Assembly (NCBI GenBank): GCA_964577695.1
Contig: CAZOAL010000020.1
Location: forward strand, 72,121-136,120
DNA: 64,000 bases
Source of the DNA: an uncultured bacterium
GTDB lineage: Bacteria > Poribacteria > WGA-4E > PCPOR2b
Direction of reading: 5' to 3'
A program made the translations under genes and the position numbers. Positions 39,612 to 54,987 of this stretch are shown here, piece after piece; within the stretch, counting starts at the first letter, position 1; each line of letters opens with the position of its first letter. Under the pieces are notes generated by a model, which saw only the letters and a list, made by a program, of their open reading frames with translations, was not told where the DNA came from and searched no databases.

Positions 39612-42600
39612 ATGAAAAATTATACATATCCAGAAAAGCACGGTCTATACGACCCAGCTTATGAGCACGACAGTTGTGGTGTGGGGTTTATCGCCCACAT
39701 CAAGGGAAAACGTTCACATCAGATTATTCTTGACGCCAATCAAATCCTGTGCCACATGGACCACCGCGGGGCCCGCGGCTGCGAAGTAAATACCGGTGAT
39801 GGCGCTGGCATACTCACCGCACTGCCGCATGAATTTCTGAAGCGGGTTGCGGCTGAAGAACTCAACGTCGATCTCCCCGCCCCCAATTATTTTGCCGCGG
39901 GGATAGTTTTTCTGCCAACTGATGCGGTAGAACGACAATTTTGCAAAAGAACCGTTGAGAAGATTATTGCCGAACAAGGGCAAAAATTCATCGGTTGGCG
40001 GAGTGTGCCCGTCAATCCAGACGATGCGGATATTGGCCCATCTGCACGAGCAGGCGAGCCAGTTATTGAGCAACTGTTCGTCGCCGCTGATGACAAACTG
40101 GAACCCGAAGCTTTTGAGCGGCAACTCTATGTCATTCGCAAGCGGGCGAGCCATCAATTGCGTATCCATAGTGGACTGCGCCAGGCACGTATGTTTTACA
40201 TTTGCACGCTCTCAATGAAGGTTATCGTTTATAAGGGACAGTTAATCCCAAGTCAGTTGATGCTCTACTATCCTGATCTACTTGAGCCAGATTTTAAGTC
40301 ACACCTGGCCATGGTCCACTCACGATTTTCGACCAACACCTTTCCATCCTGGGATCGCGCGCACCCGAATCGCTTTATGTCCCATAACGGCGAAATTAAC
40401 ACGCTACGCGGCAATACCAACTGGATACATGCCCGCCAGGGCGTGATGCAAAGTGAACTGTTCGGAGATGACTTGAAGAAACTGTTCCCGATTATCGAGC
40501 CTGACTGCTCCGATTCAGGTAACTTCGACAACGCTTTGGAACTGCTGCTCATGGCGGGGCGTTCACTACCCGAAGCTGTGATGATGATGATTCCGGAGGC
40601 ATGGGAGAACCATGAGTCAATCTCGCCGGCCAAACGTGCTTTCTATGAATATTATTCTTGCCTTCAGGAACCGTGGGATGGTCCTGCGTCGATTGCGTTC
40701 AGTGATGGCCACTACATCGGCGCCGTATTAGACCGCAACGGTCTACGTCCGAGTCGTTATTATGTCACGCACGATGATCGGGTGATTATGGCGAGTGAAG
40801 TCGGCGTGTTACCGGTGCCGCCGGAGCAGGTCAAGATTAAAGGGCGTCTACAGCCCGGTCGCATGTTCCTGGTTGATTTTGAACAGGGACGATTGGTGCC
40901 TGACGATGAACTCAAGCATGATATTGCCACACGCAAGCCTTACGGCGAGTGGTTAGAAAGACAGCGCATCCGATTAAGCGAACTCCCAAAAACCGAATCG
41001 CCATGGGAGGGCGAGGCTCCTGCCGAGTCCTACGATATAGACGAATTGTTGACCCGGATGCAGGCTTTCGGCTACACCGTTGAAACGCTAGAATTTATGC
41101 TGAAGGGGATTGTGGAATCGAAGAAAGACCCCGTTGGATCGATGGGCAACGATGCCGCATTAGCGTGCTTATCGGATACGCCGCGTATGCTGTACGACTA
41201 CTTCAAACAGTTGTTCGCACAAGTGACGAATCCGGCGATTGACTCCATCCGTGAAGAAATTATTATGACGCTTGAGTGCTTCATCGGTCCCGAAGGAAAC
41301 CTGTTGGAAACAACAGAGGCGCAGTGCCACCGCTTGCGAATCCCGGAACCGATTCTGACCAATGAGGAGCTCGCGACGATTAAACATCTGGATTACCGGG
41401 GATGGCGGTCAAAAGTCATCGACATGACTTACCCACGGACTGAAGGCGTCATGGGGCTAGAGCCTGCTTTGGAACGCATCTGTGAGGAAGCGACTGCGGC
41501 GATTGAGGAAGGCATTCAGCTAATCGTCCTCTCTGACCGCAACATGGGGCCAAACCGCGTGGCAATCAGTTCCCTGCTCGCTACAGGGGCTGTGCATCAC
41601 CACCTGGTACGCACGGAGAGTCGCACCCGCATCGGTATTGTGGTAGAGAGTGGTGACGCCCGCGAAGTCCATCACTTCTGCTTGCTAGTTGGCTACGGTG
41701 CTGACGCGATTAACCCATACATCGCTTTTGAGTCCCTATACCAGTTAAATCGGGATGGGGCGTTCGAGAAGGATATCACCGACGATCAACTGCTTGAGTC
41801 CTACATTGAGGGCGTTTGCAAGGGGATTTTGAAAGTCACGTCCAAAATGGGCATCTCGACTCTGGCAAGCTACAAAGGGGCTCAGGTATTTGAGGCCGTC
41901 GGTCTGAATAGCGGTGTTGTTGACCAGTGCTTCGCCGGGACTGCCAGCCGTATCCAGGGGGTTGGCTTCGATGTCCTCGCCATTGAAGCATTGCGTCGGC
42001 ATGAACTGGGGTATCCAACCCGCGAAATTGTTCGTATGCCTGTGTTGCCCAACGACGGACAGTTCCACTGGCGTAGCAGCGGGGAACAGCACCTATATAA
42101 CCCGGAAACTATCATGGACCTGCAACTCGCGGCTCGAACGAACAGCCGCGCGGCCTACGAAAAGTTTGCAGCGTACATTAACGATTATAACCGCAATCGA
42201 TGTACGTTGCGTGGGCTACTGATGTTCAAGAAGGGGGTTCCGATTCCATTAGAAGAAGTTGAACCCGCCAAGGAGATTGTCAAACGATTCTGCACCGGTG
42301 CGATGAGTTTTGGCTCGATCTCAAGAGAAACTCACGAAACACTAGCGATTGCGATGAATCGCCTGGGCGGTAAGTCCAACACAGGCGAGGGTGGCGAGGA
42401 CTACGAACGGTTTAAGCCATTGCCCAACGGTGACAGCAAGCGGTCCGCCATCAAGCAGGTTGCCTCCGGTCGATTCGGCGTAACGTCCTGGTACCTGACC
42501 AATGCCGACCAGCTTCAAATCAAGATTGCTCAAGGTGCCAAGCCCGGCGAAGGTGGTGAGCTACCCGGTTATAAGGTCAGCGAAGAGATTGCCGCGACAC

Positions 42601-44168
42601 GCCATACGACGCCGGGGGTAGGGCTCATTAGCCCACCGCCGCACCACGACATCTACTCCATTGAAGACCTCGCGCAACTCATCCACGACCTGAAGAACGC
42701 CAATCCATCGGCACGGATTAGCGTGAAACTGGTCTCCGAAGTGGGTGTGGGTACGATTGCCGCAGGTGTGGCGAAAGGGCATGCCGACCATATCCTGATT
42801 TCTGGCCATGAGGGAGGGACTGGGGCTTCACCGTGGACCTCGATTATGCACGCTGGCTTACCGTGGGAGCTGGGAATTGCTGAAACGCACCAGACATTGG
42901 TGATGAATGACCTTCGCTCCCGTGTGCGATTGGAGACTGACGGCAAGCTGTTGACGGGACGTGACGTGGTCATCGCGGCACTGCTGGGCGCTGAGGAATT
43001 TGGCTTCGCAACTGCGCCATTGATTACGCTAGGTTGTATCATGATGCGGAAGTGCCACCTGAATACCTGTCCGGTGGGTGTCGCTACGCAAGACCCTGAA
43101 CTTAGGAAGAAATTTACCGGCAAGCCTGAGCACGTCGTCAACTACTTCTTCATGGTCGCTGAAGATGCACAGAAAATTATGGCAGAACTCGGCTTCCGCA
43201 CATTTGACGAAATGATTGGGCGTGTCGATATGCTTGAGGCAGACAAAGCAATTGAACACTGGAAAGCCAAGGACCTGGACCTGACACCGATTCTAACGCC
43301 AGCGCGAAAGCTTCATCCGGGAGTGGAAGTTTACTGTACCATCAAACAGGACCACGGGTTGGAGAGAGCGTTGGACAATGAATTGATTCAGTTGGCTAGA
43401 CCTGCCTTGAAGCGAGGTGAAAAGGTTTACATTGATTTGCCTGTCCAAAACATCAACCGCGTTATCGGTACGATGCTCAGTCACGAAGTGTCAAAGGTTT
43501 ACGGTGCTGAAGGCTTGCCGCGGGACACAATCCACATCAAACTTAGCGGCTCTGCCGGTCAGAGTTTAGCCGCCTGGTTGGTCTCCGGCGTCACCATTGA
43601 GCTAGAAGGCGATGCGAATGACTATGTAGGCAAAGGCCTGTCCGGCGGGGTACTGATTGTATATCCGCCGAAAAACGCCACCTTCAAGCCCGAAGAAAAC
43701 ATCATCATCGGTAATGTGGCGTTATACGGTGCGATTGCGGGGAAGGCATTTTTCCGCGGGATGGCGGCCGAGCGGTTTGCGGTTCGCAATTCTGGCGTTC
43801 ACGCTGTCATCGAAGGGGTCGGCGACCACGGCTGCGAGTACATGACCGGTGGACGAGTGGTGGTTCTCGGTTCGACGGGACGCAACTTCGCCGCAGGCAT
43901 GTCTGGCGGCATCGCCTATGTCTGGGACATTGATGGCAAGTTTGCAGGTCGCTGCAATCTGGAGATGGTCGAACTGGAGAAGATAGAAACCGACGAGGAG
44001 AAAGCCGAAGTGCGGAACCTCATCGAGTTGCACTATCGCTATACCGGTTCAGCCGTGGCGAAGCGAATCCTTGACGATTTTGATTCCTACGTGCCGGATG
44101 GATTCGTGAAGGTCATGCCCACTGATTACAAACGGGTGCTTGAGAAACAAAAGCGACGTGCTTCGTAA
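39612..44168 (+). CDS. gltB: glutamate synthase large subunit
   Basis: 1518 aa. N-terminal amidotransferase [11 protein letters not shown] and 3Fe-4S regions. GXGXG C-terminal domain. Confidence 0.95.
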
Positions 44169-44254
44169 GCCCCAACGCGGGGAAATACGGCTTAGGCTTC
44201 ATGTACTGGTATGGGCTCAGTTCAACAAGAATGGTGAAAAATTCTGGGTAAAAA

Positions 44255-44282
44255 GATGAGACGGAATTTTTTCCGTCTCATC
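44255..44282. terminator. hairpin GATGAGACGG-aatttttt-CCGTCTCATC downstream of gltB
   Basis: 10-bp perfect stem. T-run on the minus-strand side and A-run on the plus side (bidirectional-type). Confidence 0.4.
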
Positions 44283-44386
44283 AAGAGTTAGGACGAAGTG
44301 AAAAACGTGAAGGATGCCACTCTCGCGTAGCGGGACAAGTGTGCGGATCGCACCACAAGTAGCAAGGTTGCTTTCAAAAAAGGAGT

Positions 44387-45451
44387 GTGACACTGATGGA
44401 AAGATCGCTGTGCTATCTTGTTCTGGGTAATAACGAGTCGCCCGATGAGGTGCTACGCACCCTGCAAATGTGCGTATGGTTAAGGAATGAGCCCCCCGGA
44501 CTGAATGACGGACACTCGCGGACGGCAACAGTGAAGCTATGCCATATGGAGATAACAAAAGAGGCTTTAGATAATAGGCAACTCGGCAAATGGAAAAAAT
44601 GTATTCAATTCTGTGTTGCTAATGGAGTCGGTGTGATTCCGCTGCAGACAGAGCAGCTTATATCCCCTTATCTCACGTCTGCTCTTACCTTTGCCATGCT
44701 TAAGATTGAGAACTCCTATGACTGTCTTTTTCTTATGGCGGGTAGTGCATCCAGATCTCCGCTAGGGGATACATCTACCAATGCTATTTGGCGCGCCGTT
44801 GAAGCTCTTTATGGTGAACCCGAGGTGTGGCTACTCATCAGCAAGTCAAGGGAATTCGCTCTGATGCGGTCACGCTTTTTCAGACAATGGTACCCCATGT
44901 ACTTCGCATCGGAAGGACGGACCTGTCGCCGAGCAAGCCTGTTCTCCCCGCTTCTGCGGCGTGGAAAGATTTGGACACTGGAGCCAACTGTTTCACCGGA
45001 CAACGCATATGACCACTTAGCTGCGGTCTTTCGGGGAATGAACGCTGTGGGCGTTCTTGATGGATACCTTGCATGGAAACTGCGTATGTACCGACTAGAG
45101 ACGAAGATGCCCGAGCATTATATGCTACTGGACTTCTTATGGATGTTGGAGTTGTGTTCGCGTCTGAGAAATATCCCATTGATGGTTCTTCCGATTACTG
45201 CGAAGACGTGGACATCAGAAGGAATCAAAGCGGGGGCGCTTTTGCATGCCCCTGAGAGCATTGGTCTGCCAACGAGGTCGGGGACCAAGTTCTTGGGCAT
45301 GATGTTGGTGCTCCCATTTCTTGGAGCGGCACTAGGAACGGCTATCGGCACCCATTGGGGTAACTGGAAGTTGGGTGGTTTCTGTGGTCTGATGGCGGGC
45401 ATGACGCTCTCGGTACTTGGGCAGCTTTTGTTCTTCCAGCGAAATAGGTAA
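44387..45451 (+). CDS. hypothetical protein with C-terminal TM helices (possible first, attC-degenerate cassette)
   Basis: 354-aa ORF with no recognisable recombinase motifs. Followed by a degenerate CCCTAAC...GTTAGAA segment at 45487..45573. Confidence 0.35.
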   Translation: MTLMERSLCYLVLGNNESPDEVLRTLQMCVWLRNEPPGLNDGHSRTATVKLCHMEITKEALDNRQLGKWKKCIQFCVANGVGVIPLQTEQLISPYLTSALTFAMLKIENSYDCLFLMAGSASRSPLGDTSTNAIWRAVEALYGEPEVWLLISKSREFALMRSRFFRQWYPMYFASEGRTCRRASLFSPLLRRGKIWTLEPTVSPDNAYDHLAAVFRGMNAVGVLDGYLAWKLRMYRLETKMPEHYMLLDFLWMLELCSRLRNIPLMVLPITAKTWTSEGIKAGALLHAPESIGLPTRSGTKFLGMMLVLPFLGAALGTAIGTHWGNWKLGGFCGLMAGMTLSVLGQLLFFQRNR

Positions 45452-45585
45452 CTTTGGTGCGAGGTGCAGAGAGCATATCGTGGTCCCTAACCCACAAAGG
45501 AAGCCCTAACAAGGTGCCCCGCCTGACGGCAATTCCGTTGTGCTCCATTGTCGCAGGTGAGCTTGGGTGTTAGAAGGAGGTAGCG

Positions 45586-46188
45586 ATGAGCAACCTAGGT
45601 CATAAGAAGTGGAAGCGGCTCGCGGTTTGGATACCAGTCAACTTGATTATCTTTGTCGCAGTCGCGATAACGAACGGACTGCTCGTATTCGCCATCGGTG
45701 CGTTCTCTTCAAACCTGTTCAGTCTTTGGATGCTTACCGCTTTCGTTCTCAAGAAAGATCACGGTCATAAACTCTCGTCGGGCAAGAAGGTCACGCTGAT
45801 CGCACTCGGTACGCTCGTAGGAGCAGCTTTTGCCTACGGTCATCCACTGTATCTTGGGCTTACGCTTGCCTTCGTGATTCATGAAATGATTCTTCTGGAC
45901 CGATTCGGACTAGGTGCCTTCAGTGCGTTCTGCGCTCCTGTTGTTAGTCTTGTTCCGATTGTTAATATATCACATGCGTCATACACATTACTGACGTTAT
46001 CGTCGGCAACGTATCAATTCGAGGCCATCATTGGATACGCGGTCGTGACAATACTGCTTGTAACGAGTGTTGCGCTACTTAAGAGAGATGACAAGCAATT
46101 GCTACCGATCGTTGGCAAGACAGAACTCGAGTATGGAATTGAAAAGATAGGTGCTCACAGATGGCTGCGTTTGTTTTTCAGAGTGTAG
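45586..46188 (+). CDS. hypothetical membrane protein (cassette-encoded)
   Basis: 200 aa, 5-6 TM segments. Followed by attC-like site 1. Confidence 0.5.
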   Translation: MSNLGHKKWKRLAVWIPVNLIIFVAVAITNGLLVFAIGAFSSNLFSLWMLTAFVLKKDHGHKLSSGKKVTLIALGTLVGAAFAYGHPLYLGLTLAFVIHEMILLDRFGLGAFSAFCAPVVSLVPIVNISHASYTLLTLSSATYQFEAIIGYAVVTILLVTSVALLKRDDKQLLPIVGKTELEYGIEKIGAHRWLRLFFRV

Positions 46189-46230
46189 GTTGGGTTGAGG
46201 TGCGAAATCCAACAGAATTAATCCAGCTTC

Positions 46231-46427
46231 GCCTAACCAGTCGTTGCAGTTGACGGTCCGATAGATCGGACGAGCACGGGAGCTGTGGTTTTATGAACGT
46301 TTTTGGGGTTGCGGCGGTTTTTGGTTTGTCGGACGCTTTTCGGCAAACGCCCGCCGTGCTCGTCCGATCTATCGGACCTGTCTGCGTGCGGCACGCACAG
46401 GCAGACAACTGAACTGGGTCGTTAGGT
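46231..46427 (+). repeat. attC-like site 1 (197 bp)
   Basis: GCCTAACCAGTCGTTGCAGTTGACGGTCCGATAGATCGGACGAGCACGG ... CCGTGCTCGTCCGATCTATCGGACC ... CAACTGAACTGGGTCGTTAGGT. Long complementary L''/L' arms. Confidence 0.65.
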
Positions 46428-46696
46428 AGAGCGCAAGACAACAGCACCACAAACCGAATATGGGTGTTTACTTTCTAAGGTGAATAAGGAGAACTCATGC
46501 CAACTGGCATCCTTAGCTCTTTTCCCGATAACTTCGACGCTCCCATGCCAGAGTTTAACGCTGATGGCTTCCGCCAGACCACTCGCTTTACGAACGTATT
46601 ACGGCCGAGGCCATCAGATATTGGACAAAGTGGTTTGGACAGACTCGAAACCTTACTCCAAAAGGCCGAGTTTGGGCGACAACAGGAGGGCTACCA

Positions 46697-46923
46697 TGAA
46701 CGACGAACCTATTATTCGTAAGCCTGCAATCATCCAAGAGGAGATAGATGATCTTCGACGGTATCTTAACGGAATCCCGGAGCAATTAAGAACGAGCGGT
46801 GCATTTAATTCTTATGAACAGCGGCTGGTCGAACTAAACAGGGAACTGGTAGTAAGCCGCAATCAGAAACAGCATTCTTGGAGATCAAAAGCGAAGGAGA
46901 AGACCATGCCTAAAGAAGAGTGA
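46697..46923 (+). CDS. hypothetical small protein (cassette 2)
   Basis: 75 aa from MNDEPII with an AGGAGGG RBS. Confidence 0.4.
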
Positions 46924-47005
46924 AGAAAGGCAATTGACAGTATTACTGAAGACGATATGGAACGAGAGCTGAACAACTAGAGGTTAATAGTGAGGTGATT
47001 GTCAG

Positions 47006-47614
47006 ATGGCATTTACGGATTTTAAATCCATCCAGCAAGTTCAAGAAGCCTTCAATATAAAATATACTGAAGAAGATTACATTGACTATGATGAGATAGA
47101 ACCTTCTAAAGCCTTTCTAGAAGAGTTTGAATTTAGTCGGCGAAATATTGATGTGTTCTCATCAGAAGCATCGCGTTGCGAAAATGTCATATATCCGATA
47201 ATTCGAGATGTTTATAAGAATTATGTCGGGAAATACGCGCTATGGAGCCATAAATCGATTTTTTATGACCCCGTCCTTAGCGGTATAGCCGACTACATGA
47301 TCTCAACGAAATCAGAATTAGGGAAAACGATTTTGGGTCTTCCCGTTGTTGTGGTGGTCGAAGCGAAGCAAAATAACTTTGCGGAAGGTTGGGGGCAATG
47401 CCTAGCAGAACTGGTTGCGGTTCAGAAAATCAACAAAAATGAAGTGCTCCCCGTTCATGGAATTGTGACAGATGCCGAACTCTGGCATTTTGGAAAATTG
47501 GTTGGTAATCTTTTTACAAAGAATGAGACGGTTTTGGCGATAAGTGAACTGAAAAAAGTGTTTAGTGCGATCAGTTATTTAATTAGGTCGAGCATGAATT
47601 ACATTGAAGCCTAA
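47006..47614 (+). CDS. hypothetical protein (cassette 2)
   Basis: 202 aa. Stop TAA lies inside the inverse core GCCTAAC of attC 2. Confidence 0.5.
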   Translation: MAFTDFKSIQQVQEAFNIKYTEEDYIDYDEIEPSKAFLEEFEFSRRNIDVFSSEASRCENVIYPIIRDVYKNYVGKYALWSHKSIFYDPVLSGIADYMISTKSELGKTILGLPVVVVVEAKQNNFAEGWGQCLAELVAVQKINKNEVLPVHGIVTDAELWHFGKLVGNLFTKNETVLAISELKKVFSAISYLIRSSMNYIEA

Positions 47615-47682
47615 CCCGCCGTTGCAGTTGACCTGCCTGCACCGTGCCTTGCGCGGCTGGCAACTGAACTGGGTCGTTAGGC
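47609..47682 (+). repeat. attC-like site 2 (74 bp)
   Basis: GCCTAACCCGCCGTTGCAGTTGACC...GGCAACTGAACTGGGTCGTTAGGC. Confidence 0.65.
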
Positions 47683-47691
47683 AGTAAAGAG

Positions 47692-47925
47692 GTGATTGAT
47701 ATGGAAGTCATGGAATTAATACCGCAATTGCGCCAATTAAGCCACGCTGATAAGTTATATGTCATGCAGTTCTTGGTATCCGAACTGGCTCAGGAACAAA
47801 CTGACCTCCTTCAACCGAATCTGAACTATCCAGTTTGGTCTCCTTATGATGCCTTTGAAGCTGCCAACACAATGCTTCAGGTATTGAAAGCAGCCGAGCC
47901 GTTGAGGACAGCTCCTGATGCGTAA
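47692..47925 (+). CDS. small protein, first gene of the aspartyl-protease cassette (copy 1)
   Basis: 77 aa, about 97% identical to 50967..51200. Overlaps the downstream gene by 8 nt. Confidence 0.5.
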   Translation: MIDMEVMELIPQLRQLSHADKLYVMQFLVSELAQEQTDLLQPNLNYPVWSPYDAFEAANTMLQVLKAAEPLRTAPDA

Positions 47926-48199
47926 TAGCGAACAATACCCGTTTACTCCTGCTGATAGTACACTTGGCGAAGCCAGTCTCCGACCCTACTTGCCAATCAC
48001 ATTGACCTATCAAGGGCAATCAGTAACGGTTTCAGGTTTGCTTGATACGGGTTCTATGGTTGAAGAAAAAACGGCATGTTTCAGAAATCTTTTTACACTC
48101 TCCGCCGCTGGAAGAATGGAAGGATGGAAGGATGGGGGGCGGGAGTTCATCCCGATGCGGGCGGGAGTTCATCTCCCACTCTTCCACTCCTTGGGTTGA
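47918..48199 (+). pseudogene. retropepsin-like aspartyl protease, truncated by a MITE-like insertion after ...LLDTGSMV
   Basis: Identical to 51193.. up to nt 48059, then diverges into the GGCATGTTTCA-TIR element. The intact copy at 51193..51606 has the DTGS active site. Confidence 0.6.
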
Positions 48200-48268
48200 G
48201 CCTGTCGAAACCTTCCATCCTTTCATGCCAAGTGTAAACTGATTTTTTCGGAAATTTGAAATATGCCC
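48073..48268. mobile_element. MITE-like element copy D (about 196 bp) inserted in the cassette protease gene
   Basis: Left TIR GGCATGTTTCAGAAATCTTTTTACAC. Right TIR reverse-complement GGGCATATTTCAAATTTCCGAAAAAATCAGTTTACAC. Interior has GGAAGGATGG repeats. Confidence 0.6.
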
Positions 48269-48290
48269 TGCTACGCGGACAAAGGAAAAA

Positions 48291-48740
48291 ATGACACTTC
48301 CCAATCTCAATCATGCAGGTGAGTTACCTGAAGGCGTGCATCAGACAACAATGGATGAAGTGATTGCACGATTTGGTAGCGGAACTTCACAACGACAAAC
48401 TGTCACAGCACGATTGCAACGGCTCTATCAACTCGCCAAAGATACAGCCAAACTGCAACGATTAATCATCTTTGGGAGTTATATCACCACAAAACCCGAA
48501 CCGAATGACATCGACATCGTGCTAATCTTTGATGACGATTTCGACATCACCGCTTGTCGCGAAGAAACGAAGATGCTTCTAGAGCATCAGCAAGCAACTG
48601 AGACGTTTGGAGCAAGCGTTTTTTGGATTCGTCCTTCGTTGCTATTCCTTGAAACCCTCGACGAGTTTATTGCAGGCTGGCAAGTCAAGCCGATCAGACC
48701 CGTCGCGGAATCGTGGAGGTCAGAGAATGATTCACAATAA
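48291..48740 (+). CDS. nucleotidyltransferase (MNT-like; GSx9DxD)
   Basis: LIIFGSYITTKPEPNDIDIVLIF. Confidence 0.6.
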   Translation: MTLPNLNHAGELPEGVHQTTMDEVIARFGSGTSQRQTVTARLQRLYQLAKDTAKLQRLIIFGSYITTKPEPNDIDIVLIFDDDFDITACREETKMLLEHQQATETFGASVFWIRPSLLFLETLDEFIAGWQVKPIRPVAESWRSENDSQ

Positions 48741-48969
48741 TAAAGAACTAAAAGCAACTCAGGAACGTATTGAATATTTTCAAAATTTACTTTTACAATT
48801 GCGTGTCAAAGCCACGCCTGAAGAATTCCCTCTCATTTCAAGTGGGTATCGGGCGGAGATCGAACAGATGCAAGGCGAAGTGCTTGAATATCTGACACGA
48901 CATTCAAGTGAGCTGATGCCGACAGAGGCGACTTCAATAGAAGTAGCCGCCGTGTCAAGCAGCACCTAA
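48727..48969 (+). CDS. small helical partner protein of the NTase (possible HEPN-like or antitoxin)
   Basis: 80 aa from MIHNNKELK. 14-nt overlap with the NTase gene. Stop TAA lies inside the inverse core of attC 3. Confidence 0.4.
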   Translation: MIHNNKELKATQERIEYFQNLLLQLRVKATPEEFPLISSGYRAEIEQMQGEVLEYLTRHSSELMPTEATSIEVAAVSSST

Positions 48970-49116
48970 CCCGCCGTTGCCGTTGATGACGGTCCGATAG
49001 ATCGGACGAGCACGGGGAACTGTGGTTTTATGACTGTTTTTTGGGCTTGCGGCGAGTTTTGGTTTGTCGGATGGTTTTGACAAATCCCCCGCCGCGCCTG
49101 AACTGGGTCGTTAGGC
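48964..49116 (+). repeat. attC-like site 3 (153 bp)
   Basis: ACCTAACCCGCCGTTGCCGTTGATGACGGTCCGATAGATCGGACGAGCACGG...GCCTGAACTGGGTCGTTAGGC. Confidence 0.6.
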
Positions 49117-49147
49117 AGCAAAACAAGAAAGGATTGGGTTGTACATT

Positions 49148-49423
49148 ATGGCAACGGTTACCATAGAAATTCCCGATGAACTTGCAGAACAGTTCAATAG
49201 CGTGGACGAGATTCGTCGAGCCGTGTATGAAGATTTCATCATTGAGCAACGCCAAAAAGGAAATCTCAGCTTTGGTCAAGCAGCAGAACTGCTTGGAATC
49301 ACCTACACTGAGTTCTTTGACCTTCTTGGAAAGAAAGGGGTTTCCTTTATCAATGCAACACCTGACGAACTGAATGAAAGCTACCGTCGGTTTGAGGGGA
49401 TTATGGAGCAAACAGGCACATGA
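49148..49423 (+). CDS. UPF0175-family antitoxin-like protein
   Basis: VTIEIPDELAEQF...LSFGQAAELLGI HTH-like region. Overlaps the downstream DUF3368 gene by 4 nt. Confidence 0.5.
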   Translation: MATVTIEIPDELAEQFNSVDEIRRAVYEDFIIEQRQKGNLSFGQAAELLGITYTEFFDLLGKKGVSFINATPDELNESYRRFEGIMEQTGT

Positions 49424-49863
49424 TTGTTATTTCAAATGCAAGCCCACTCATTGCTTTGAGTCGGATTGACCTCTTACATCTTCTCAAAGATCTATTTGCT
49501 GACGTGTATATTCCTGACGCGGTTTACCAAGAAACCGTCACAAATTGTGATATTATCCTTCAGAAAACCCGAATATCACAGGCAACTCATGAGTTTATCA
49601 AGGTTGTTGTACCCACGGTTCGACATGTATTTTCAAGGCGTCTCGGAGCAGGTGAACAGGGAGTACTCAATCTCGCCCTGGAGAAACACGCTCAACTGGT
49701 CCTAATCGATGATAAGAAGGCGAGACGTGAAGCGCTTGAATTGGGGTTGGTTCCAGCGTTTACGACAGACATCCTCAAGAGAGCCGAACATCAAAGATTA
49801 ATTGTCTCATATCAGCAGGTGGTGCAGGCTCTTCAGAAGTTGGGTATATATTTGCCGGAGTAG
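49420..49863 (+). CDS. DUF3368 (PIN-like) toxin-like protein
   Basis: 147 aa, MIVISNASPLIALSRIDLLHLL. Classic UPF0175/DUF3368 gene pair. Confidence 0.5.
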   Translation: MIVISNASPLIALSRIDLLHLLKDLFADVYIPDAVYQETVTNCDIILQKTRISQATHEFIKVVVPTVRHVFSRRLGAGEQGVLNLALEKHAQLVLIDDKKARREALELGLVPAFTTDILKRAEHQRLIVSYQQVVQALQKLGIYLPE

Positions 49864-49906
49864 TCAGATTAAGGTCATGTCGGAACCATCGAAGGGAAGG
49901 GGATAT

Positions 49907-50066
49907 GCCTAACCCGCTGTTGCAGTTGACGGTCCGATGGATTGGACGAGCCCGGGGAACTGTGGTTTTATGAATGTTTTCTGGGTTGCAGCAGGTTTTG
50001 GTTTGTCGGACGTTTTTCGGCAAACCCCCGCCGTGCTCGTCCGTGCAGCGGACAACTGAACTTATC
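49907..50066 (+). repeat. attC-like site 4 (R' end degenerate)
   Basis: GCCTAACCCGCTGTTGCAGTTGACGGTCCGATGGATTGGACGAGCCCGG...CCGTGCTCGTCCGTGCAGCGGACAACTGAACTT, lacking the canonical GGGTCGTTAGGC core. Confidence 0.5.
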
Positions 50067-50138
50067 ATACCAGGCTGAAGATGAACCAACCACATAAAGT
50101 AAACGCCTATCTGTTACCTTATGCGTAAACGAATCTAC

Positions 50139-50594
50139 ATGGAAACCACTATACCAAGTTACCTTACTGCTCGACCCAGCCGAGATATAGTCCAAGCCGC
50201 ACGGCAACAACTGACACGCGAGTGGTGGGATTCAGAACGGCACAGCTACGTTCTTTGCATATCGCAAATTGTATTAGACGAAGCCGCGGCAGGTAATGAA
50301 GATGCCGCACAAAGACGCATGGCGGTGTTAGCTGATTTGCCGTTGCTTGACCTGACGTTAGATGTCGATGAATTGGCCTTAAAAATTATGGCATCTGGGC
50401 TGCTTCCAGAGAGAGCATCTCGTGATGCCATTCATATCGCTGTGGCATGTGTTCATCATGTGGATTTTCTGTTAACGTGGAATTGTAGACATATTGCCAA
50501 CGCGACCATACTCAGAGATTTGCAGAACATTATCGTTGATGCCGGCTATGAAATGCCCGTGATATGTACGCCTGAAGAATTGATAGGAGATTAA
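50139..50594 (+). CDS. PIN-domain protein (VapC-like)
   Basis: About 150 aa, IYMETTIPSYL...DAIHIAVA.... Confidence 0.5.
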   Translation: METTIPSYLTARPSRDIVQAARQQLTREWWDSERHSYVLCISQIVLDEAAAGNEDAAQRRMAVLADLPLLDLTLDVDELALKIMASGLLPERASRDAIHIAVACVHHVDFLLTWNCRHIANATILRDLQNIIVDAGYEMPVICTPEELIGD

Positions 50595-50595
50595 A

Positions 50596-50781
50596 ATGGC
50601 AGTCATAGACATTGAGAAAATAAAGACACAAGATGAAGTCATTTTGGAAGTTAGAAAGATTAAGGACGATTTGGCTAGTGCCTTTTCTTATGATATTAAG
50701 AAAATGCTGGCTGAGGCAAGACTCAGACAGAAGGTAAGCTGTCGCACAGTTGTATCGCCATCTGCCAAGAAGGATGCCTAA
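50596..50781 (+). CDS. small hypothetical protein following the PIN gene
   Basis: 61 aa. Stop TAA lies inside the inverse core of attC 5. Confidence 0.35.
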   Translation: MAVIDIEKIKTQDEVILEVRKIKDDLASAFSYDIKKMLAEARLRQKVSCRTVVSPSAKKDA

Positions 50782-50957
50782 CCAGCCGTTGCAGTCTTCT
50801 TAGTCCCGATTTATCGGGGTGACGGCGGGGCGGGGAATTTCGGATTGCGGATTATGAAGACGGTACAATCCGCAATCGCCAATCCGAAATCCGAAATCGT
50901 CAGCCCCCGCCGTGCTCGTCCGAGAATCGGACCGCAACTGAACTTTTTTCGTTAGGC
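50776..50957 (+). repeat. attC-like site 5 (182 bp)
   Basis: GCCTAACCAGCCGTTGCAG...CCGCCGTGCTCGTCCGAGAATCGGACCGCAACTGAACTTTTTTCGTTAGGC, with several internal hairpins. Confidence 0.6.
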
Positions 50958-50966
50958 AGCAAAGAG

Positions 50967-51200
50967 GTGATTGATATGGAAGTCATGGAATTAATACCAC
51001 AACTGCGCCAATTAAGCCACGCTGATAAGTTATATGTCATGCAGTTCTTGGCATCCGAACTGGCTCAAGAACAAACTGACCTCCTTCAACCAAATCTGAA
51101 CTATCCAGTTTGGTCTCCTTATGATGCCTTTGAAGCTGCCAACACAATGCTTCAGGTATTGAAAGCAGCCGAGCCGTTGAGGACAGAGCCTGATGCATGA
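50967..51200 (+). CDS. small protein, first gene of the aspartyl-protease cassette (copy 2)
   Basis: Near-identical duplicate of 47692..47925. Confidence 0.5.
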   Translation: MIDMEVMELIPQLRQLSHADKLYVMQFLASELAQEQTDLLQPNLNYPVWSPYDAFEAANTMLQVLKAAEPLRTEPDA

Positions 51201-51606
51201 TAGCGAACAATACCCGTTTACTCCTGCTGATAGCACACTTGGCGAAGCCAGTCTCCGACCATACTTGCCAATCACATTGACCTATCAAGGACAATCAGTA
51301 ACGATTTCAGGTTTGCTTGATACGGGTTCTATGGTTAATGTATTGCCTTATCAAGTGGGCGTGGAGCTAGGAGCAGTATGGGAACAACAGAAGACACCGC
51401 TTCAGTTGACAGGTAATCTGGCAAGATATGAAGCACGGGCACTGGTTGTCTCTGCAACCGTTGGGCGGTTTGAACCTGTGCAACTTGTATTTGCTTGGAC
51501 TCAAATCACAGATGTTCCATTGCTGTTGGGGCAAGTCAACTTCTTCATGGAATTTGATGTTTGCTTCTATCGCTCCCAGCTGTCCTTCGAGGTTCGCCCC
51601 AAATAG
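51193..51606 (+). CDS. retropepsin-like (clan AA) aspartyl protease
   Basis: 137 aa with LLDTGSMVNVL active-site motif. Translationally coupled to the upstream small gene. Confidence 0.55.
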   Translation: MHDSEQYPFTPADSTLGEASLRPYLPITLTYQGQSVTISGLLDTGSMVNVLPYQVGVELGAVWEQQKTPLQLTGNLARYEARALVVSATVGRFEPVQLVFAWTQITDVPLLLGQVNFFMEFDVCFYRSQLSFEVRPK

Positions 51607-51629
51607 GTTTCTTCTTGAGAGATATAGCG

Positions 51630-51759
51630 GCCTACCTAGTCGTTGCAGTTGACGGCGGAATCTGTGGTTTTTGAAAGTCTATCGGTAAACAGCAGGCTTT
51701 GGGTTTGTCGGACGTTTTTCGGCAAATCCCCCGCCGCGGCTGAACTTGGGTCGTTAGGC
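51630..51759 (+). repeat. attC-like site 6 (130 bp)
   Basis: GCCTACCTAGTCGTTGCAGTTGACGG...CCGCCGCGGCTGAACTTGGGTCGTTAGGC. Confidence 0.55.
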
Positions 51760-51802
51760 TGAAGGATAGAATCTCTACCGTACACGATCAGTTGGTGGCC
51801 AA

Positions 51803-52090
51803 ATGCCTCAATATGGTTGGTACCGGTTTGAGTGGGATGATGAAAATCAGAAAAACGGGAACGTCCAGCATTTGCGCGATCACGGTATCGAGCCAGAAGA
51901 AGCAGAGGAATGTTTTTCCCACGACTATCAATGGTGTCGAGATGAGTGGCGATTTGATGATGTCTACATTTTAGACGGCAGAACAGATCGCGGAAGACGG
52001 TTGCGTCTGGTTTTCCAGGATAAAGGGAACGGGCTTGCCCGGGTGTTTACCGGTTGGGATTTGAAACGGAAAAAGAGGAGGAAAAGATGA
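51803..52090 (+). CDS. brnT: BrnT-like toxin (DUF497), cassette-encoded
   Basis: FEWDDENQKNGNVQHLRDHGIEPEEAEECF. Confidence 0.6.
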   Translation: MPQYGWYRFEWDDENQKNGNVQHLRDHGIEPEEAEECFSHDYQWCRDEWRFDDVYILDGRTDRGRRLRLVFQDKGNGLARVFTGWDLKRKKRRKR

Positions 52091-52404
52091 AAAAACAATT
52101 CAGCGATTTATCCAAAGCCGAACAGGAAAAAATCGAACTGGAATATCATCATAAGAATCCGGCTGAATTTGATGACCTGATGTCTCAGACCCAAACCTAC
52201 ACCACTGCGTCGATCCGTTTGCCCGGTGAGTTGGTTGAAACGTTGAAAGTGGTAGCGAAGTTGGAGGGTGAACGGGGGTATCAGTCAATGGTGAGAAAAT
52301 GGATCACCGAGCACTTGCAACAAGAGGCCCGACTGGCGTTGCGATTGTCAGAGATGCCTCTCAAAGAGGTTGTCGCGGTTTTGGAGGGGCAACTCACCAA
52401 ATGA
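52087..52404 (+). CDS. brnA: BrnA-like antitoxin, cassette-encoded
   Basis: 106 aa from MKKQF with an AAAGAGGAGG RBS. Overlaps the brnT stop. C-terminal RHH-like region. Confidence 0.5.
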   Translation: MKKQFSDLSKAEQEKIELEYHHKNPAEFDDLMSQTQTYTTASIRLPGELVETLKVVAKLEGERGYQSMVRKWITEHLQQEARLALRLSEMPLKEVVAVLEGQLTK

Positions 52405-52417
52405 GTGCTTCGGCCGT

Positions 52418-52476
52418 GCCTAACCAGCCGTTGCAGTTGACGGTCCGAGAATCGGACAACTGAACTTTGTTCGTCC
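52418..52476 (+). repeat. attC-like site 7 (short, 59 bp, core degenerate)
   Basis: GCCTAACCAGCCGTTGCAGTTGACGGTCCGAGAATCGGACAACTGAACTTTGTTCG. Confidence 0.45.
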
Positions 52477-52495
52477 GGAGGATAGAGAGCACATT

Positions 52496-52729
52496 ATGGA
52501 GGTCAAACTATCAAAGGAGATTCCAATCATGTCAAATGTAGAGGAAATTAAAGTCGCCATCGAAGCCCTTCCTGAAGCGGATTATGTCCGATTGAGGCAA
52601 TGGTTTACTGAAAAAGACTGGGAAAAATGGGATAGACAGATCGAGGCAGACTCAAAGTCAGGAAAATTGGATTTCTTAATCGCAGAAGCCCTTGAAGAAA
52701 AAACGAAGGGAACACTCAAGGAGCTTTAA
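52496..52729 (+). CDS. putative addiction-module antitoxin-like small protein
   Basis: 77 aa, acidic and helical. Immediately followed by a possible degenerate RelE/ParE-like ORF. Confidence 0.35.
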   Translation: MEVKLSKEIPIMSNVEEIKVAIEALPEADYVRLRQWFTEKDWEKWDRQIEADSKSGKLDFLIAEALEEKTKGTLKEL

Positions 52730-52963
52730 ATGCACCGAACAACCAGTCGCTTCTGGAGATGTTTCGAGGAACTTCCGGAATCGGTTCAAACGAAGTTCTC
52801 GTCTCGGCAATGCACGGTTTTCAGTCGTTGGTTTGAATCGTTACGTGGCGGCAAGTATGTCGTCGTCGTTGTGGTCAGCCATCCTGCGCCAAAGGCGCGT
52901 CATTGGATTATTACAGCTTATATCGCCAGAGAATTGGCAAAGGAAGTGGAGGTAAGAGAATAA
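52730..52963 (+). CDS. possible degenerate RelE/ParE-like toxin
   Basis: 77 aa. Starts 1 nt after the previous stop. Contains a GTC-repeat (VVVVV) stretch. Confidence 0.25.
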   Translation: MHRTTSRFWRCFEELPESVQTKFSSRQCTVFSRWFESLRGGKYVVVVVVSHPAPKARHWIITAYIARELAKEVEVRE

Positions 52964-53127
52964 TTCACAATAATAAAGATAGGACTTACCTTGACTTTGG
53001 TAAATTAAACTGGCGATCCAGTCGTAGAGCATGCGGCTCGCTTGTTCAAAACTTCGGTGAACCAGCCAGCGGCAGGCTCTACATGCCGATCGTTCCCCTA
53101 ATGTAACAAAGTCAAGTTACGCACTTC

Positions 53128-53192
53128 ATCACTTACTTTTACAATTGCGTGTCAAAGCCACGCCTGAAGAATTTCCTCTCATTTCAATGTTA
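53128..53192. repeat. approximately 60-bp duplicate of cassette sequence 48775..48845 abutting the gltD start
   Basis: ACTTTTACAATTGCGTGTCAAAGCCACGCCTGAAGAATT(T/C)CCTCTCATTTCAA is present at both loci. 52962..52985 also repeats 48730..48753. Confidence 0.6.
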
Positions 53193-53227
53193 TCTCTCAT
53201 TAATAAATTTCAAGGAGGCTAAAAATT

Positions 53228-54709
53228 ATGGGTAAAACCACGGGATTCATGGAATACAGTCGGAAAAAAGTTTATGAGCGTGTGCCTAAGGAACGTATCA
53301 AAGACTTCGATCTGTTCCTAATCCCACTTGATGAGGAGGAACGTCGTATTCAAGGTGCTCGTTGTATGGACTGCGGCATCCCATTTTGCCAGTCTGCCGC
53401 GGGGTGCCCCATCGACAACCTGATTCCCGAATGGAACGACCTCGTTTACCGCGGTCACTGGCGTGAAGCACTAGACCGACTCCACAAAACCAATAACTTC
53501 CCCGAGTTCACCGGTCTGGTTTGCCCGGCACCGTGCGAGGGGGCCTGCTGCCTGGGCATCAACGAGCTGCCCGTCACTATCAAGAACAACGAATATGCTA
53601 TCATCGAGCGTGGCTTTGAAGAGGGGTGGGTTCGACCCAATCCGCCTCGACATCGTACAGGCAAGAAAGTGGTAATCATTGGATCCGGTCCAGCCGGTCT
53701 GGCAGCCGCCGATCAACTCAACAAGGTCGGTCACACGGTAACGGTATATGAACGTGCAGACCGCATCGGGGGGCTACTGATGTACGGCATTCCAAACATG
53801 AAACTCGACAAGCGAATCGTCCAACGTCGTCTGGATGTCATGGCGGCCGAAGGTGTCGAGTTTGTTACCAACGCCCATGTCGGTGTCAATGTCGATGTCA
53901 CTATTTTGCGTGAGACGTTCGACGCGATTGTGCTCGCTTGTGGGGCGATCCACCCGCGTGATTTGCGCGTCCCGGGTCGTGAACTTCAGGGGATTCATTT
54001 TGCCGTGAAATTCCTGCACGAGAATACGAAGAGTCTATTGGATTCCGACCTTAAGGATGGGCAGTATATTTCAGCCAAGGACAAGCACGTCATCGTCATC
54101 GGCGGCGGGGATACGGGCAATGATTGCCTCGGCACATCGATGCGTCATGGGTGCAGGAGCCTGACCAACTTTGAGATCTTGCCTGAACCGCCTGCCGAAC
54201 GCGCTCCCGATAATCCTTGGCCACAGTATCCACGAATCTATCGTGTCGATTATGGCCATGAGGAAGCGGCATACGTGTTCGGCAAAGACCCGCGTGAATA
54301 CTGTATATTGACCAAAGCGTTTGTCGGCGACGGTAATGGAAATGTCAAGACTGCTCGCACCGTACGCGTTGGGTGGGAAAAAGATGAAAGTGGCAGATTC
54401 CAGATGAAAGAGATAGTGGGCAGCGAAGAGGAATGGCCTGCCGATCTCGTGTTTCTAGCCATGGGTTTTCTGGGACCCGAAGAAATCCTTGTGAAGCAAT
54501 TTGGCTTGGAGACCGATCCCCGCTCCAACATGAAGGCTGAATATGGCCGATTTGCGACCAGCATTGACGGAATCTTCGCCGCTGGCGATTGCCGACGCGG
54601 TCAGTCATTGGTGGTGTGGGCAATCGCTGAAGGACGTGGTGCCGCCCATGCCGTTGATAAATACTTGATGGGCTCCTCCGCCCTGCCAATCCCCGGTATG
54701 ATACTTTGA
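53228..54709 (+). CDS. gltD: glutamate synthase small (NADPH) subunit
   Basis: N-terminal Cys cluster CMDCGIPFC...[23 protein letters not shown] dinucleotide fold. Strong GGAGG RBS. Confidence 0.9.
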
Positions 54710-54987
54710 GCCTTGAGATGATATACGGACGGTAACGCGACAACGAATTGAGGAAAGAACGAATTCGTGGTTTCCCCAATTTGCTGTCGTGCGCCATTCA
54801 CTTGTATACCCTCATATTGATTCTTAACCTAAGTTGCCACCTATCACGAAAATCGTCTGTAGTCTAGCCCCCCCGATAGATCGGCCTGTCCCGATCCCTC
54901 GGGGGGCAGGCGTGTGGGCGTCGATTGACCCAAACGCCCACGAGGGGCTAGACTACGACTGCACTTTCCCGAGTTCGTCAACACAGC

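Follow-up and report, generated by a model that had tools for sequence, protein, structure and literature searches.

What separates gltB and gltD, the genes for the large and small subunits of glutamate synthase, and how that material came to lie there, is the question raised by a 64,000-nt stretch of contig CAZOAL010000020.1 (GCA_964577695.1; hereafter the window). Both genes are on the + strand, with 9,059 bp between them that are filled by small + strand open reading frames (ORFs) and a family of repeats. Based on their sequence and predicted folding, we identify these repeats as attC recombination sites, and the array is very probably a group of clustered attC sites without an integron integrase (CALIN) in the gltB-gltD spacer of a Poribacteria-like bacterium. 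To qualify as a CALIN, two or more attC sites must share a strand, each within 4 kb of the next, and have no integrase nearby (Cury et al. 2016, PMC4889954). The window holds eight sites (45504-52479) in a single orientation, the same as that of gltB and gltD, at 727-1,378 nt from start to start, and the assignment follows from this spacing and strandedness together with the lack of a detectable integrase in all 64 kb. A preliminary description, made from the sequence alone, had proposed a CALIN-type array at this position with at least seven attC-like sites. The array and its single orientation are real, but the count is eight canonical sites plus one atypical palindrome at a cassette boundary (Table 1), and the proposal is supported by covariance models built on foreign genomes, folds, covariation, a site type linked to integrases, and the adjacency of the two genes in relatives.

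attC anatomy and site catalogue

Since Rfam contains no attC family (a search at gathering and E-value thresholds returned no relevant family, only chance microRNA-like matches on the hairpins), the anatomy of the repeats was tested directly. When folded as single-stranded DNA, their ends pair (GCCTAAC/GTTAGGC), a short unpaired spacer follows, and GTT/AAC and CAGTTG/CAACTG then pair. When 14 bottom strands from the window and other genomes were folded together, their consensus comprised GTT/AAC, a bulged base, 6 bp of CAGTTG/CAACTG, a bulged T, and a variable stem, and the unpaired spacer between the R box and the L box measured 5-8 nt. Extrahelical bases of attC sites have been placed at positions 16 and 23, 6 bp apart, together with an unpaired central spacer of 5-6 nt (Nivina et al. 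2016, PMC5027507), and the bulges found here match both the positions and the 6-bp spacing. The bottom strands had been expected to fold as attC with extrahelical bases, and they do so, forming the R and L boxes with the spacer between them and a pair of extrahelical bases where canonical sites have theirs. In each unit of the array, one or two small genes precede an attC site, and the bottom strand of that site adopts the structure to which integron integrases bind.

The variable stem also covaried. Across 39 distinct sites, it contained 69 double-change cells compared with 32 ± 4.7 after shuffling (none of 500 shuffles reached 69), a covariation score of 0.232 versus 0.104, and 83% pairing versus at most 56% when the partner column was slid. 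The foreign sites in this set were gathered with the 5' motif from the window, so that their 5' half is not independent, while their 3' half and structure are. The core after GTT varies among sites (GTTAGGA, GTTATGC, GTTCGGC, and others), the 5' inverse core having been held fixed by the search; such variation is expected if a crossover at G|TT exchanges the sequence that follows. Two covariance models, R1 (32 sites, centre trimmed) and R2 (13 complete sites of a 130-nt type), were built from foreign genomes only, with the same caveat on the 5' half of their sites, and scanned unfiltered over all 64 kb. Together they scored seven of the eight window sites at E-values of 1e-5 to 1e-30. Every one of these matches was to the bottom strand, and no other part of the window fell below E 0.1.

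The 5' motif CCTAAC-N5-GTTGCAGTTGAC occurs seven times with no more than three mismatches, always on the + strand in 46231-52441 (zero expected in 100 shuffles), and no further match at this threshold was found in the window; one at 9235, returned by a looser regular expression, was rejected as a chance three-mismatch match. Five of the repeats that begin with this motif are closed by a 3' motif, CAACTGAAC-N5-7-GTTAGGC. The R'' core is GCCTAAC or ACCTAAC in six sites, GCCTACC in attC6, and CCCTAAC in attC0, and the R' core is GTTAGGC, GTTAGGT, or GTTAGAA in six of the eight sites and decayed in attC4 and attC7. Site lengths are 62, 72, 74, and 130 nt plus 153, 169, 182, and 197 nt, compared with the usual range of approximately 57-141 nt, and the long sites contain nested hairpin insertions. 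A perfect 25-nt inverted repeat quoted in the preliminary description was recovered by repeat search, in attC1. Stop codons had likewise been described as embedded in the inverse cores, which holds for three of the eight cassettes (ORF ends at 47614, 48969, and 50781) but not for all.

Five window attC sites contain a nested accessory hairpin, GTCCG-N5/6-CGGAC, which in many cases has GTGCTC before it or GAGCAC after it. It makes up much of their unusual length, and also occurs in Poribacteria sites (loci L009, L017, L020, L022, and L079).

Table 1. Coordinates of the features of the gltB-gltD region (window positions) and loci that carry the 130-nt attC type
Feature	Position	Strand	Description and evidence
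gltB	39612..44168	+	Glutamate synthase large subunit, intact, 1518 aa; Pfam GATase_2, Glu_syn_central, Glu_synthase, GXGXG, E 1e-87 to 1e-183
119-nt leader	44169..44287	+	Origin uncertain (native spacer or remnant); 12-bp hairpin 44255-44282, minus-strand T-tail; ends GAG|TTAGGAC
Cassette 1	44288..45569	+	351-aa ORF 44396-45451, no Pfam/NCBIfam match; ends in attC0
Cassette 2	45570..46421	+	200-aa ORF 45586-46188, probably a membrane protein (hydrophobic by eye); only a sub-threshold Pfam match
Cassette 3	46422..47676	+	Overlapping small ORFs 46480-46923; 202-aa ORF 47006-47614, no family, stop in inverse core
Cassette 4 (composite)	47677..49110	+	Truncated cassette-7 copy fused to nucleotidyltransferase pair 48291-48740 and 48727-48969
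Cassette 5	49111..50075	+	UPF0175 antitoxin-like ORF 49139-49423 (E 3.7e-13) and PIN-like ORF 49420-49863
Cassette 6	50076..50951	+	PIN protein 50121-50594 (23.2 bits; cut-off 23.6) and 61-aa ORF 50596-50781
Cassette 7	50952..51753	+	77-aa ORF 50967-51200 and 137-aa retropepsin-like ORF 51193-51606 (Asp_protease_2 E 3.6e-4, below cut-off)
Cassette 8	51754..52473	+	BrnT-like ORF 51803-52090 (BrnT_toxin E 3e-4) and CopG/BrnA-like ORF 52087-52404 (CopG_antitoxin E 6e-5), both below cut-off
attC0	45504-45575	+	72 nt, divergent type, absent from the preliminary description; R1 27.0 bits, E 1.3e-5; R2 25.9 bits, E 1.1e-5; bottom strand
attC1	46231-46427	+	197 nt, nested 25-nt perfect inverted repeat on both arms; fold; R2 79.4 bits over 46257-46376
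attC2	47609-47682	+	74 nt, fully canonical; R1 54.2 bits, E 1.8e-14 on bottom strand vs 16.4 bits on top; R2 43.8 bits
attC3	48964-49116	+	153 nt; R2 66.4 bits, E 1.3e-18; motif with 2 mismatches
attC4	49907-~50075	+	~169 nt, R' decayed to ACCAGGC, GTT triplet gone; R2 77.4 bits over 49932-50053
attC5	50776-50957	+	182 nt, L'' arm diverged, centre of a different type; 5' motif with 3 mismatches, exact 3' motif CAACTGAACTTTTTTCGTTAGGC, fold; missed by R1 and R2
attC6	51630-51759	+	130 nt, widespread 130-nt type; R2 104 bits, E 1.4e-30
attC7	52418-52479	+	62 nt, R' core GTCCGGA, cleavage triplet altered; R1 43.2 bits, E 7e-11; R2 40.2 bits
Accessory hairpins	46255-46279, 46354-46378, 48991-49015, 49931-49955, 50025-50053, 50904-50932, 52442-52458		
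Atypical palindrome	48066..48272	+	~205 nt, AAC-GGCAT-GTTTCA ... TGAAAT-ATGCC-CTG; internal boundary of cassette 4; fold and arm alignment
Decayed tail without attC	52480..53181	+	77-aa ORF 52496-52729; chimeric 77-aa ORF 52730-52963; remnants
Native gltD leader	53182..53227	+	Ribosome-binding site AAGGAGG; common to L095 (97% gltD identity) and L096 (94%)
gltD	53228..54709	+	Glutamate synthase small subunit, intact, 493 aa; Pfam Fer4_20, Pyr_redox_2
130-nt attC type	Window 51630-51759; L007, L013, L023, L025, L038, L046, L051, L060, L066, L080, L082, L089, L092		

Distribution of the site type and its link to integrases

A motif scan using one genome per species recovered at least 88 loci across many phyla, with Candidatus Poribacteria metagenome-assembled genomes (MAGs) the commonest hosts. 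Arrays with a single orientation and gene-sized spacing were found elsewhere, comprising 13 sites in 8 kb in one locus (L077) and six sites in another (L063). An integron integrase (TIGR02249, 384 bits against a cut-off of 265) adjoins this attC type in L033, and in L060 and L038 N-terminal integrase fragments are divergent from a cassette that ends in a 130-nt-type attC. The nearest named relative of the L060 fragment (86%) comes from a Poribacteria MAG (GCA_021162805.1; L182:1-2170, also L181 and L183), which contains an integron of classical geometry: an intI gene cut to 153 aa is divergent from DUF2283 and MNT/HepT cassettes, and behind each cassette is an attC site (168-236 and 944-1013; R1 43.5-44.8 bits). 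IntI proteins of Roseiflexus/Anaerolineae are 73%-78% identical to the L060 fragment. These sequences point to integron cassettes, and integrase remnants at the least, in Poribacteria-like bacteria; the literature searched contained no substantive link between Poribacteria and integrons. The Poribacteria integron is like the window array in its related host phylum, in attC sites scored by the same model, and in its MNT/HepT and small-gene cargo, and differs in keeping an intI remnant divergent from the cassettes, which the window lacks. The truncated 153-aa intI is directly followed by a glycoside hydrolase gene, and was present on eight contigs from several samples.

Whether the repeats could instead be a generic palindrome, of the repetitive extragenic palindromic (REP) or miniature inverted-repeat transposable element (MITE) kind and unrelated to integrons, has to be weighed against this distribution. 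Such an origin would suit the scattered occurrence of the motif in Poribacteria MAGs (mostly one copy per 8-kb block, and four distant positions on one complete chromosome) and the small hairpins nested in several copies. It would not account for attC anatomy with asymmetric extrahelical bases, a covarying stem, gene-sized spacing and single orientation both here and elsewhere, cassette genes with homologues in other arrays, or sites linked to integron integrases. The preliminary description had named a generic REP element unrelated to gene-sized units as one of the findings that would overturn it; arrays such as the 13 sites in one orientation of L077 are of the opposite kind. Taken together, the arrays elsewhere, the adjoining integrases, and the homologous cassette genes lead us to rule out a REP element, with only the slightest residual probability.

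attC6 was 75%-81% identical over its full length to sites in other phyla. It belongs to an attC type of approximately 130 nt, with 75%-88% identity including the central region; the MAGs that contain this type are labelled Poribacteria, Anaerolineae, Scalindua, Bacteroidetes, or Spongiihabitans, or are unclassified. By sequence identity, the attC type is common to the Poribacteria-like host, Chloroflexota, Planctomycetota, and others, in agreement with the report that attC sites cluster by environment and not by host phylogeny (Ghaly et al. 2021). The inner hairpin of the 130-nt type (GGTTTGTCG-loop-CGGCAAACC) has a top-strand T-G wobble, equivalent to a C-A mismatch on the bottom strand, in 12 of 13 aligned sites (the exception being L066), and may therefore matter on the top strand or in a transcript. 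Within Poribacteria MAGs, attC sites were mostly solitary or far apart (18 model matches in 27 loci, 164 kb), and many copies were half-sites or contained nested short repeats such as CCCTTCGCTTCGCTCGAGGGCAGGCTTCG. On the complete 6.35-Mb chromosome OZ244587.1, sites are dispersed at 5.48 (L009), 4.00 (L017), 0.57 (L022), and 5.56 Mb (L025).

Neither tblastn with IntI1 (E ≤ 1e-3) nor an IntI hidden Markov model (HMM) run on six-frame ORFs (E ≤ 10) detected an integron integrase in the window. The IntI1 query recovered genuine integrases in other loci that were confirmed by NCBIfam. The flanks, in which the preliminary description had recognised no recombinase, are thus free of integrase matches for 44 kb upstream and 10 kb downstream. 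As to a complete integron, there is no intI, the sequence leading into the array is not significantly attI-like, and promoter-like matches are at chance level. The array shares with published CALINs (Cury et al. 2016) the spacing, the single strand, the lack of an integrase within 4 or 10 kb, cassettes unrelated to resistance genes, and the lack of a nearby intI pseudogene. It differs in being larger (eight sites, compared with fewer than six in 83% of CALINs), in lying co-oriented between two genes of a housekeeping operon, and in its Poribacteria-like host. With sedentary chromosomal integrons rich in toxin-antitoxin cassettes (e.g. Vibrio; Sci Adv 2024, PMC13108822), it has in common related attC sites, many small genes of no family, toxin-antitoxin-like pairs, and one orientation; the window array differs in having no intI, attI, or cassette promoter (Pc), in attC lengths of 62-197 nt, and in being short and decaying. 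This kind of element is already known, and the window provides a well-formed example in an unusual but not unique, strain-specific place.

Position, origin, and expression of the insert

An artefact of assembly, in which the array was misjoined between gltB and gltD, is very unlikely. attC repeats do break short-read assemblies, and contigs of other assemblies break inside repeats, ending here in attC1 (46260) and in a palindrome (53021 and 53088). The middle of the insert (46261-51234) lies outside second-assembly coverage and is represented by the window assembly alone. However, other assemblies match the window at 43823-46260 (100%; Logan contig L098), 51235-53088 (99.9%; JGI contig L179), 53021-64000 (99.97%), and 53133-54854 (100%), and the exact gltD protein is present on two other assemblies. 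The Logan contig runs from the end of gltB through cassettes 1 and 2 into attC1, and the JGI contig through cassettes 7 and 8 and the tail, overlapping the gltD-bearing contig. Because both junctions are reproduced in this way, they are not artefacts of a single assembly, and a chance misjoin would not put gltB and gltD in the right order and strand. The matching contigs derive from two samples (SRR6155503 and JGI 3300010391), possibly including the source of the window itself, and represent different assemblies but not necessarily different data.

The insert is absent from the closest long-contig relatives. In these (gltD 84%, 83%, and 80% identical), the gltB-gltD gap is 49, 49, and 39 nt, an adjacency that is consistent with an empty site. 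In a survey of 83 distant loci, obtained by a protein scan of metagenome contigs and at most 70% identical to gltD, 70 had gltB upstream on the same strand, with a gap below 300 nt (11-287 nt) in 63 of the 70 and of 573-1,525 nt in seven. Given their distance, these loci were used for spacer lengths and not to compare strains. An exact-pattern scan of metagenome contigs for the gltD start yielded no matches, and exact look-ups of gltB and the cassette-7 protease matched no record. The location had been described as unusual, which is correct, but it is not uniquely odd given that about 10% of surveyed spacers (7/70) hold small genes, albeit without attC (R1 detected none in the small gltB-gltD insertions of other loci). 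Overall, selfish genes of various kinds seem to be tolerated when they land in this spacer.

The seven longer spacers (L104, L105, L107, L113, L125, L145, and L158) each hold one or two co-oriented small accessory genes that by eye resemble Uma2-type nucleases, nucleotidyltransferases, HicB, GxxExxY, and retropepsin-like proteins. On a Poribacteria MAG contig (L180:1816-2680), a frameshifted Rpn/DUF4351-like gene begins 29 nt after gltB, again with no attC detected by R1.

The host was assigned from gltB, the C-terminal 400 aa of which are 87% identical to a Candidatus Poribacteria MAG protein (next named match Phycisphaeraceae, 73%); gltD alone was ambiguous (Planctomycetota, 72%), and the gltB C-terminus settled the assignment. 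An extra hairpin, GTGCTC-GTCCG-N5-CGGAC before AACTGAAC, is common to the attC sites of the window and of Poribacteria MAGs. On these two grounds, the host is identified by sequence similarity as a Poribacteria-like bacterium. GC content is 47.4% in the insert, compared with 53.3% in gltB and 53.9% in gltD.

For the origin of the array, we propose that the gltB-gltD spacer offered a secondary G|TT site, into which an integron integrase acting in trans placed a single cassette or several (attC x attG), and that later cassettes would have been added or rearranged by attC x attC recombination. This is the most likely origin, and we infer it with a roughly even chance of being correct. Experiments have demonstrated that integrases can insert cassettes at genomic GWT sites and that resident promoters then express them (Loot et al., bioRxiv 10.1101/2022.09.11.507474). 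The candidate left junction is GAG|TTAGGA (44287/44288), the start of the first recognisable cassette, whose opening TTAGGA is complementary to the R'' core of attC0 (CCCTAAC). On the right, the last 46 nt before gltD represent its native leader, since they are common to L095 and L096 (populations SRR12113388 and SRR22387992) and align with the entire 39-49-nt spacer of the 80%-84% relatives. Left of this leader, L095 and L096 carry a sequence that differs from that of the window and is 84% identical to the 3' arm of the atypical palindrome in cassette 4 (score 54, null maximum 42), and this homologue (L095:1-55 and L096:1-29) ends exactly on the leader. The L095 arm ends ...GAAAC-ATGCC-G|TTATTTCAATG (AAC, 5 nt, G|TT) at the leader start, where L096 has G|TC. 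Two left partners hence meet the same point within 1 nt, one of them as attC-G|TT, the outcome to be expected had an integrase recombined a secondary GWT site. Like the single attC sites lacking integron integrases (SALINs) and attG insertions discussed by Loot et al., the window has cassettes away from an integron platform, at a candidate G|TT or GWT junction, with a resident promoter upstream that could express them, and shows an apparent loss of attC by slippage of the sort considered there. The difference is that theirs were single-cassette experiments in Escherichia coli, and the window contains a natural multi-cassette array with junctions partly preserved.

The window's own right end has been remodelled. 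Two remnants in the tail (52946-52979 and 53125-53187) are 94% identical to 48713-48746 and 48779-48841, and the second meets the native gltD leader via an 8-nt sequence, CATTTCAA, found in both partners, as is characteristic of deletion by slippage. Folded attC sites are readily lost by slippage (Loot et al.), and a deletion of this kind, between two copies of CATTTCAA, appears to have taken the attC of the terminal cassette. The same joint can be read as a mark of illegitimate recombination, and would then favour a different history, whereby rearrangement, or homologous or illegitimate recombination, brought in a cassette block that had belonged to a larger sedentary integron elsewhere in the genome, with no integrase acting at the junctions. 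Rearrangement is one of the listed routes to CALINs (Cury et al. 2016), and such a history would leave room for the unexplained 119 nt on the left. Nevertheless, gltB, gltD, and the gltD leader are all intact, the joining of a different left sequence to this leader in L095 and L096, no more than 1 nt off and at G|TT or G|TC, looks site-specific, and no flanking repeat is available for homologous recombination. The sole candidate is a 17-nt match, AAAAATT[C/A]TGGGTAAAA, between the A-rich flank at 44237 (hairpin region 44237-44282) and the gltD start region (53221-53237), identical at 16 of 17 positions and the best of its sort in the window (p ~0.001), which overlaps the A-rich terminator tail. 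We consider translocation improbable. As a target-site duplication or att core (44237 and 53221), the same match was rejected given its modest p-value, its A-richness, its overlap with the terminator T-tail, and its position away from the insert ends under the native-leader reading. The 12-bp hairpin just 3' of gltB would terminate antisense transcripts, having its T-run on the minus strand.

Alternatively, a complete chromosomal integron may once have occupied the spacer and later lost both intI and attI. Integrase loss is another listed route to CALINs (Cury et al. 2016), Poribacteria integrons with intI cut to 153 aa exist, and the array has suffered several deletions. Yet no fragment of intI was found in the 119-nt leader or in the rest of the 64 kb at E ≤ 10, in keeping with the 95% of CALINs that have no nearby intI pseudogenes (Cury et al. 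2016), and the leader is no more like the attI regions of L060 and L182 than are unrelated parts of the window. A whole integron would moreover need a vehicle into a short operon spacer, and no transposase, insertion sequence, or terminal repeat is present. We hold a relic of this type to be about as improbable as translocation. The apparent attI homology of the leader was discarded: its score against the L060 attI beat shuffled sequences, but unrelated window parts equalled it, leaving no significant similarity to the L060 and L182 attI regions against a background of real sequence.

The cassettes have no promoter that can be recognised, and they would most likely be transcribed, as would gltD, by read-through from the gltB promoter. 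All genes of the insert are co-oriented with gltB and gltD, gltD keeps its leader and ribosome-binding site, and a promoter and terminator scan gave matches at chance level only; read-through is therefore the simplest route of expression. The toxin-antitoxin-like pairs among the cassettes would stabilise the array.

Several points weigh against the account as a whole. The window's own right junction is a gene remnant and deletion scar, not an attC, and a right junction of the expected attC-G|TT form was seen only in L095 (ATGCCG|TTATTTC), with an atypical element. That element, which abuts the gltD leader in L095 and L096, has a fully paired stem, lacks an unpaired spacer and extrahelical bases, and was unseen by R1 and R2. 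The account does not explain the 119 nt that precede the first G|TTAGGA after the gltB stop, an integrase in trans has to be assumed, and eight to nine cassettes would seem a large number for insertion at a secondary site. At the level of the sites, extrahelical position 16 is C in this site type in place of the usual G (it is G in attC0), recombination by an integrase being predicted from the integrases beside such sites elsewhere, and attC5 is identified by its motifs and folding and was not detected by either model. Co-transcription with gltB is proposed from gene orientation.

A further suggestion is that the gltB-gltD spacer would serve as a surrogate platform lacking its own integrase, with a recurrent attG-like site directly behind a strongly expressed housekeeping gene, capture by an integrase in trans, read-through from gltB, and swapping of content among strains. 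It is hinted at by the two left sequences that meet the gltD leader within 1 nt in strains with gltD 94%-100% identical, by the one attC-G|TT junction, and by the roughly 10% of spacers that hold selfish genes; we regard it as unlikely, albeit less so than the two alternative origins above. If true, CALINs embedded in operons would be working expression platforms and not relics. CALINs are common, and whether their genes are expressed or useful is unknown (Cury et al. 2016). A CALIN within an operon whose downstream gene must still be made offers a natural case of expression of promoterless cassettes from a host promoter, and raises the matter of the cost of such an insertion to an operon central to nitrogen assimilation. 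As a natural locus it agrees with the attC x attG route known from experiments, and it leaves the current understanding of integrons unchanged.

Cargo, decay, and flanking genes

The cargo listed in the preliminary description is borne out in part: UPF0175 and the nucleotidyltransferase, here a DUF6932/Pol-beta protein of cassette 4 (DUF6932 E 1.4e-22, Polbeta E 3e-5), are solid, while the PIN, BrnT, CopG-type antitoxin, Asp_protease_2, and DUF3368 matches fall under Pfam cut-offs. The PIN-like ORF of cassette 5 matched weakly (PIN-TPR-GreABC E 0.0016, DUF3368 E 0.046), and this cassette has a homologue in a Desulfonema array (L050). The PIN protein of cassette 6 is 52% identical to a cassette gene in another Desulfonema array (L039) and 45% identical to one in a Poribacteria attC locus (L082). 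Pairing makes the PIN, BrnT/CopG, retropepsin-like, and DUF3368 identities plausible, the BrnT-like and CopG-like assignment being supported by the adjacency of the two ORFs. No NCBIfam match was obtained for the 17 cargo proteins, and the 351-aa, 200-aa, and 202-aa proteins and several small ones belong to no family in Pfam or NCBIfam.

We infer that the array is now decaying, because two GTT cleavage triplets have been lost (attC4 and attC7), one cassette is a deletion fusion, and the last is truncated. The fusion, cassette 4, consists of a 403-nt copy of the start of cassette 7 (47660-48061, 95.5% identical to 50934-51336 by blastn) that stops midway through the protease-like gene, followed by the imperfect palindrome of approximately 205 nt and then by the nucleotidyltransferase pair. 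The palindrome is fully paired at its stem base, without spacer or bulges, and is not a canonical attC; it had no R1 or R2 match and may be a decayed attC of another type. The decayed tail likewise contained no R1 or R2 match at E < 1 (the sole match, at 52785-52837, scored 9.2 bits, E 7.6).

A 145-nt palindrome (52980-53124) splits the tail remnants. It has inverted repeats of about 22 nt at its ends, folds as DNA at -31 kcal/mol, and takes the place of 32 nt in the remnant that duplicates part of the gene partnering the nucleotidyltransferase. Neither R1 nor R2 scored it as an attC, and no other copy was found in the window or the fetched loci.

The genes on either side of the array are ordinary chromosomal ones. 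Those upstream encode a glyoxalase, PDZ and WD40 proteins, a Kdo transferase, and a fusion of an extracytoplasmic function (ECF) sigma factor with Kelch; the downstream ones encode an ECF sigma factor, a glycosyltransferase, a radical SAM protein, and an ABC transporter. Eukaryote-like repeat proteins (Kelch, WD40) are typical of Poribacteria, and the flanks contain both an ECF sigma factor-Kelch repeat fusion (26530-28371) and a 735-aa WD40-repeat protein (34908-37115).

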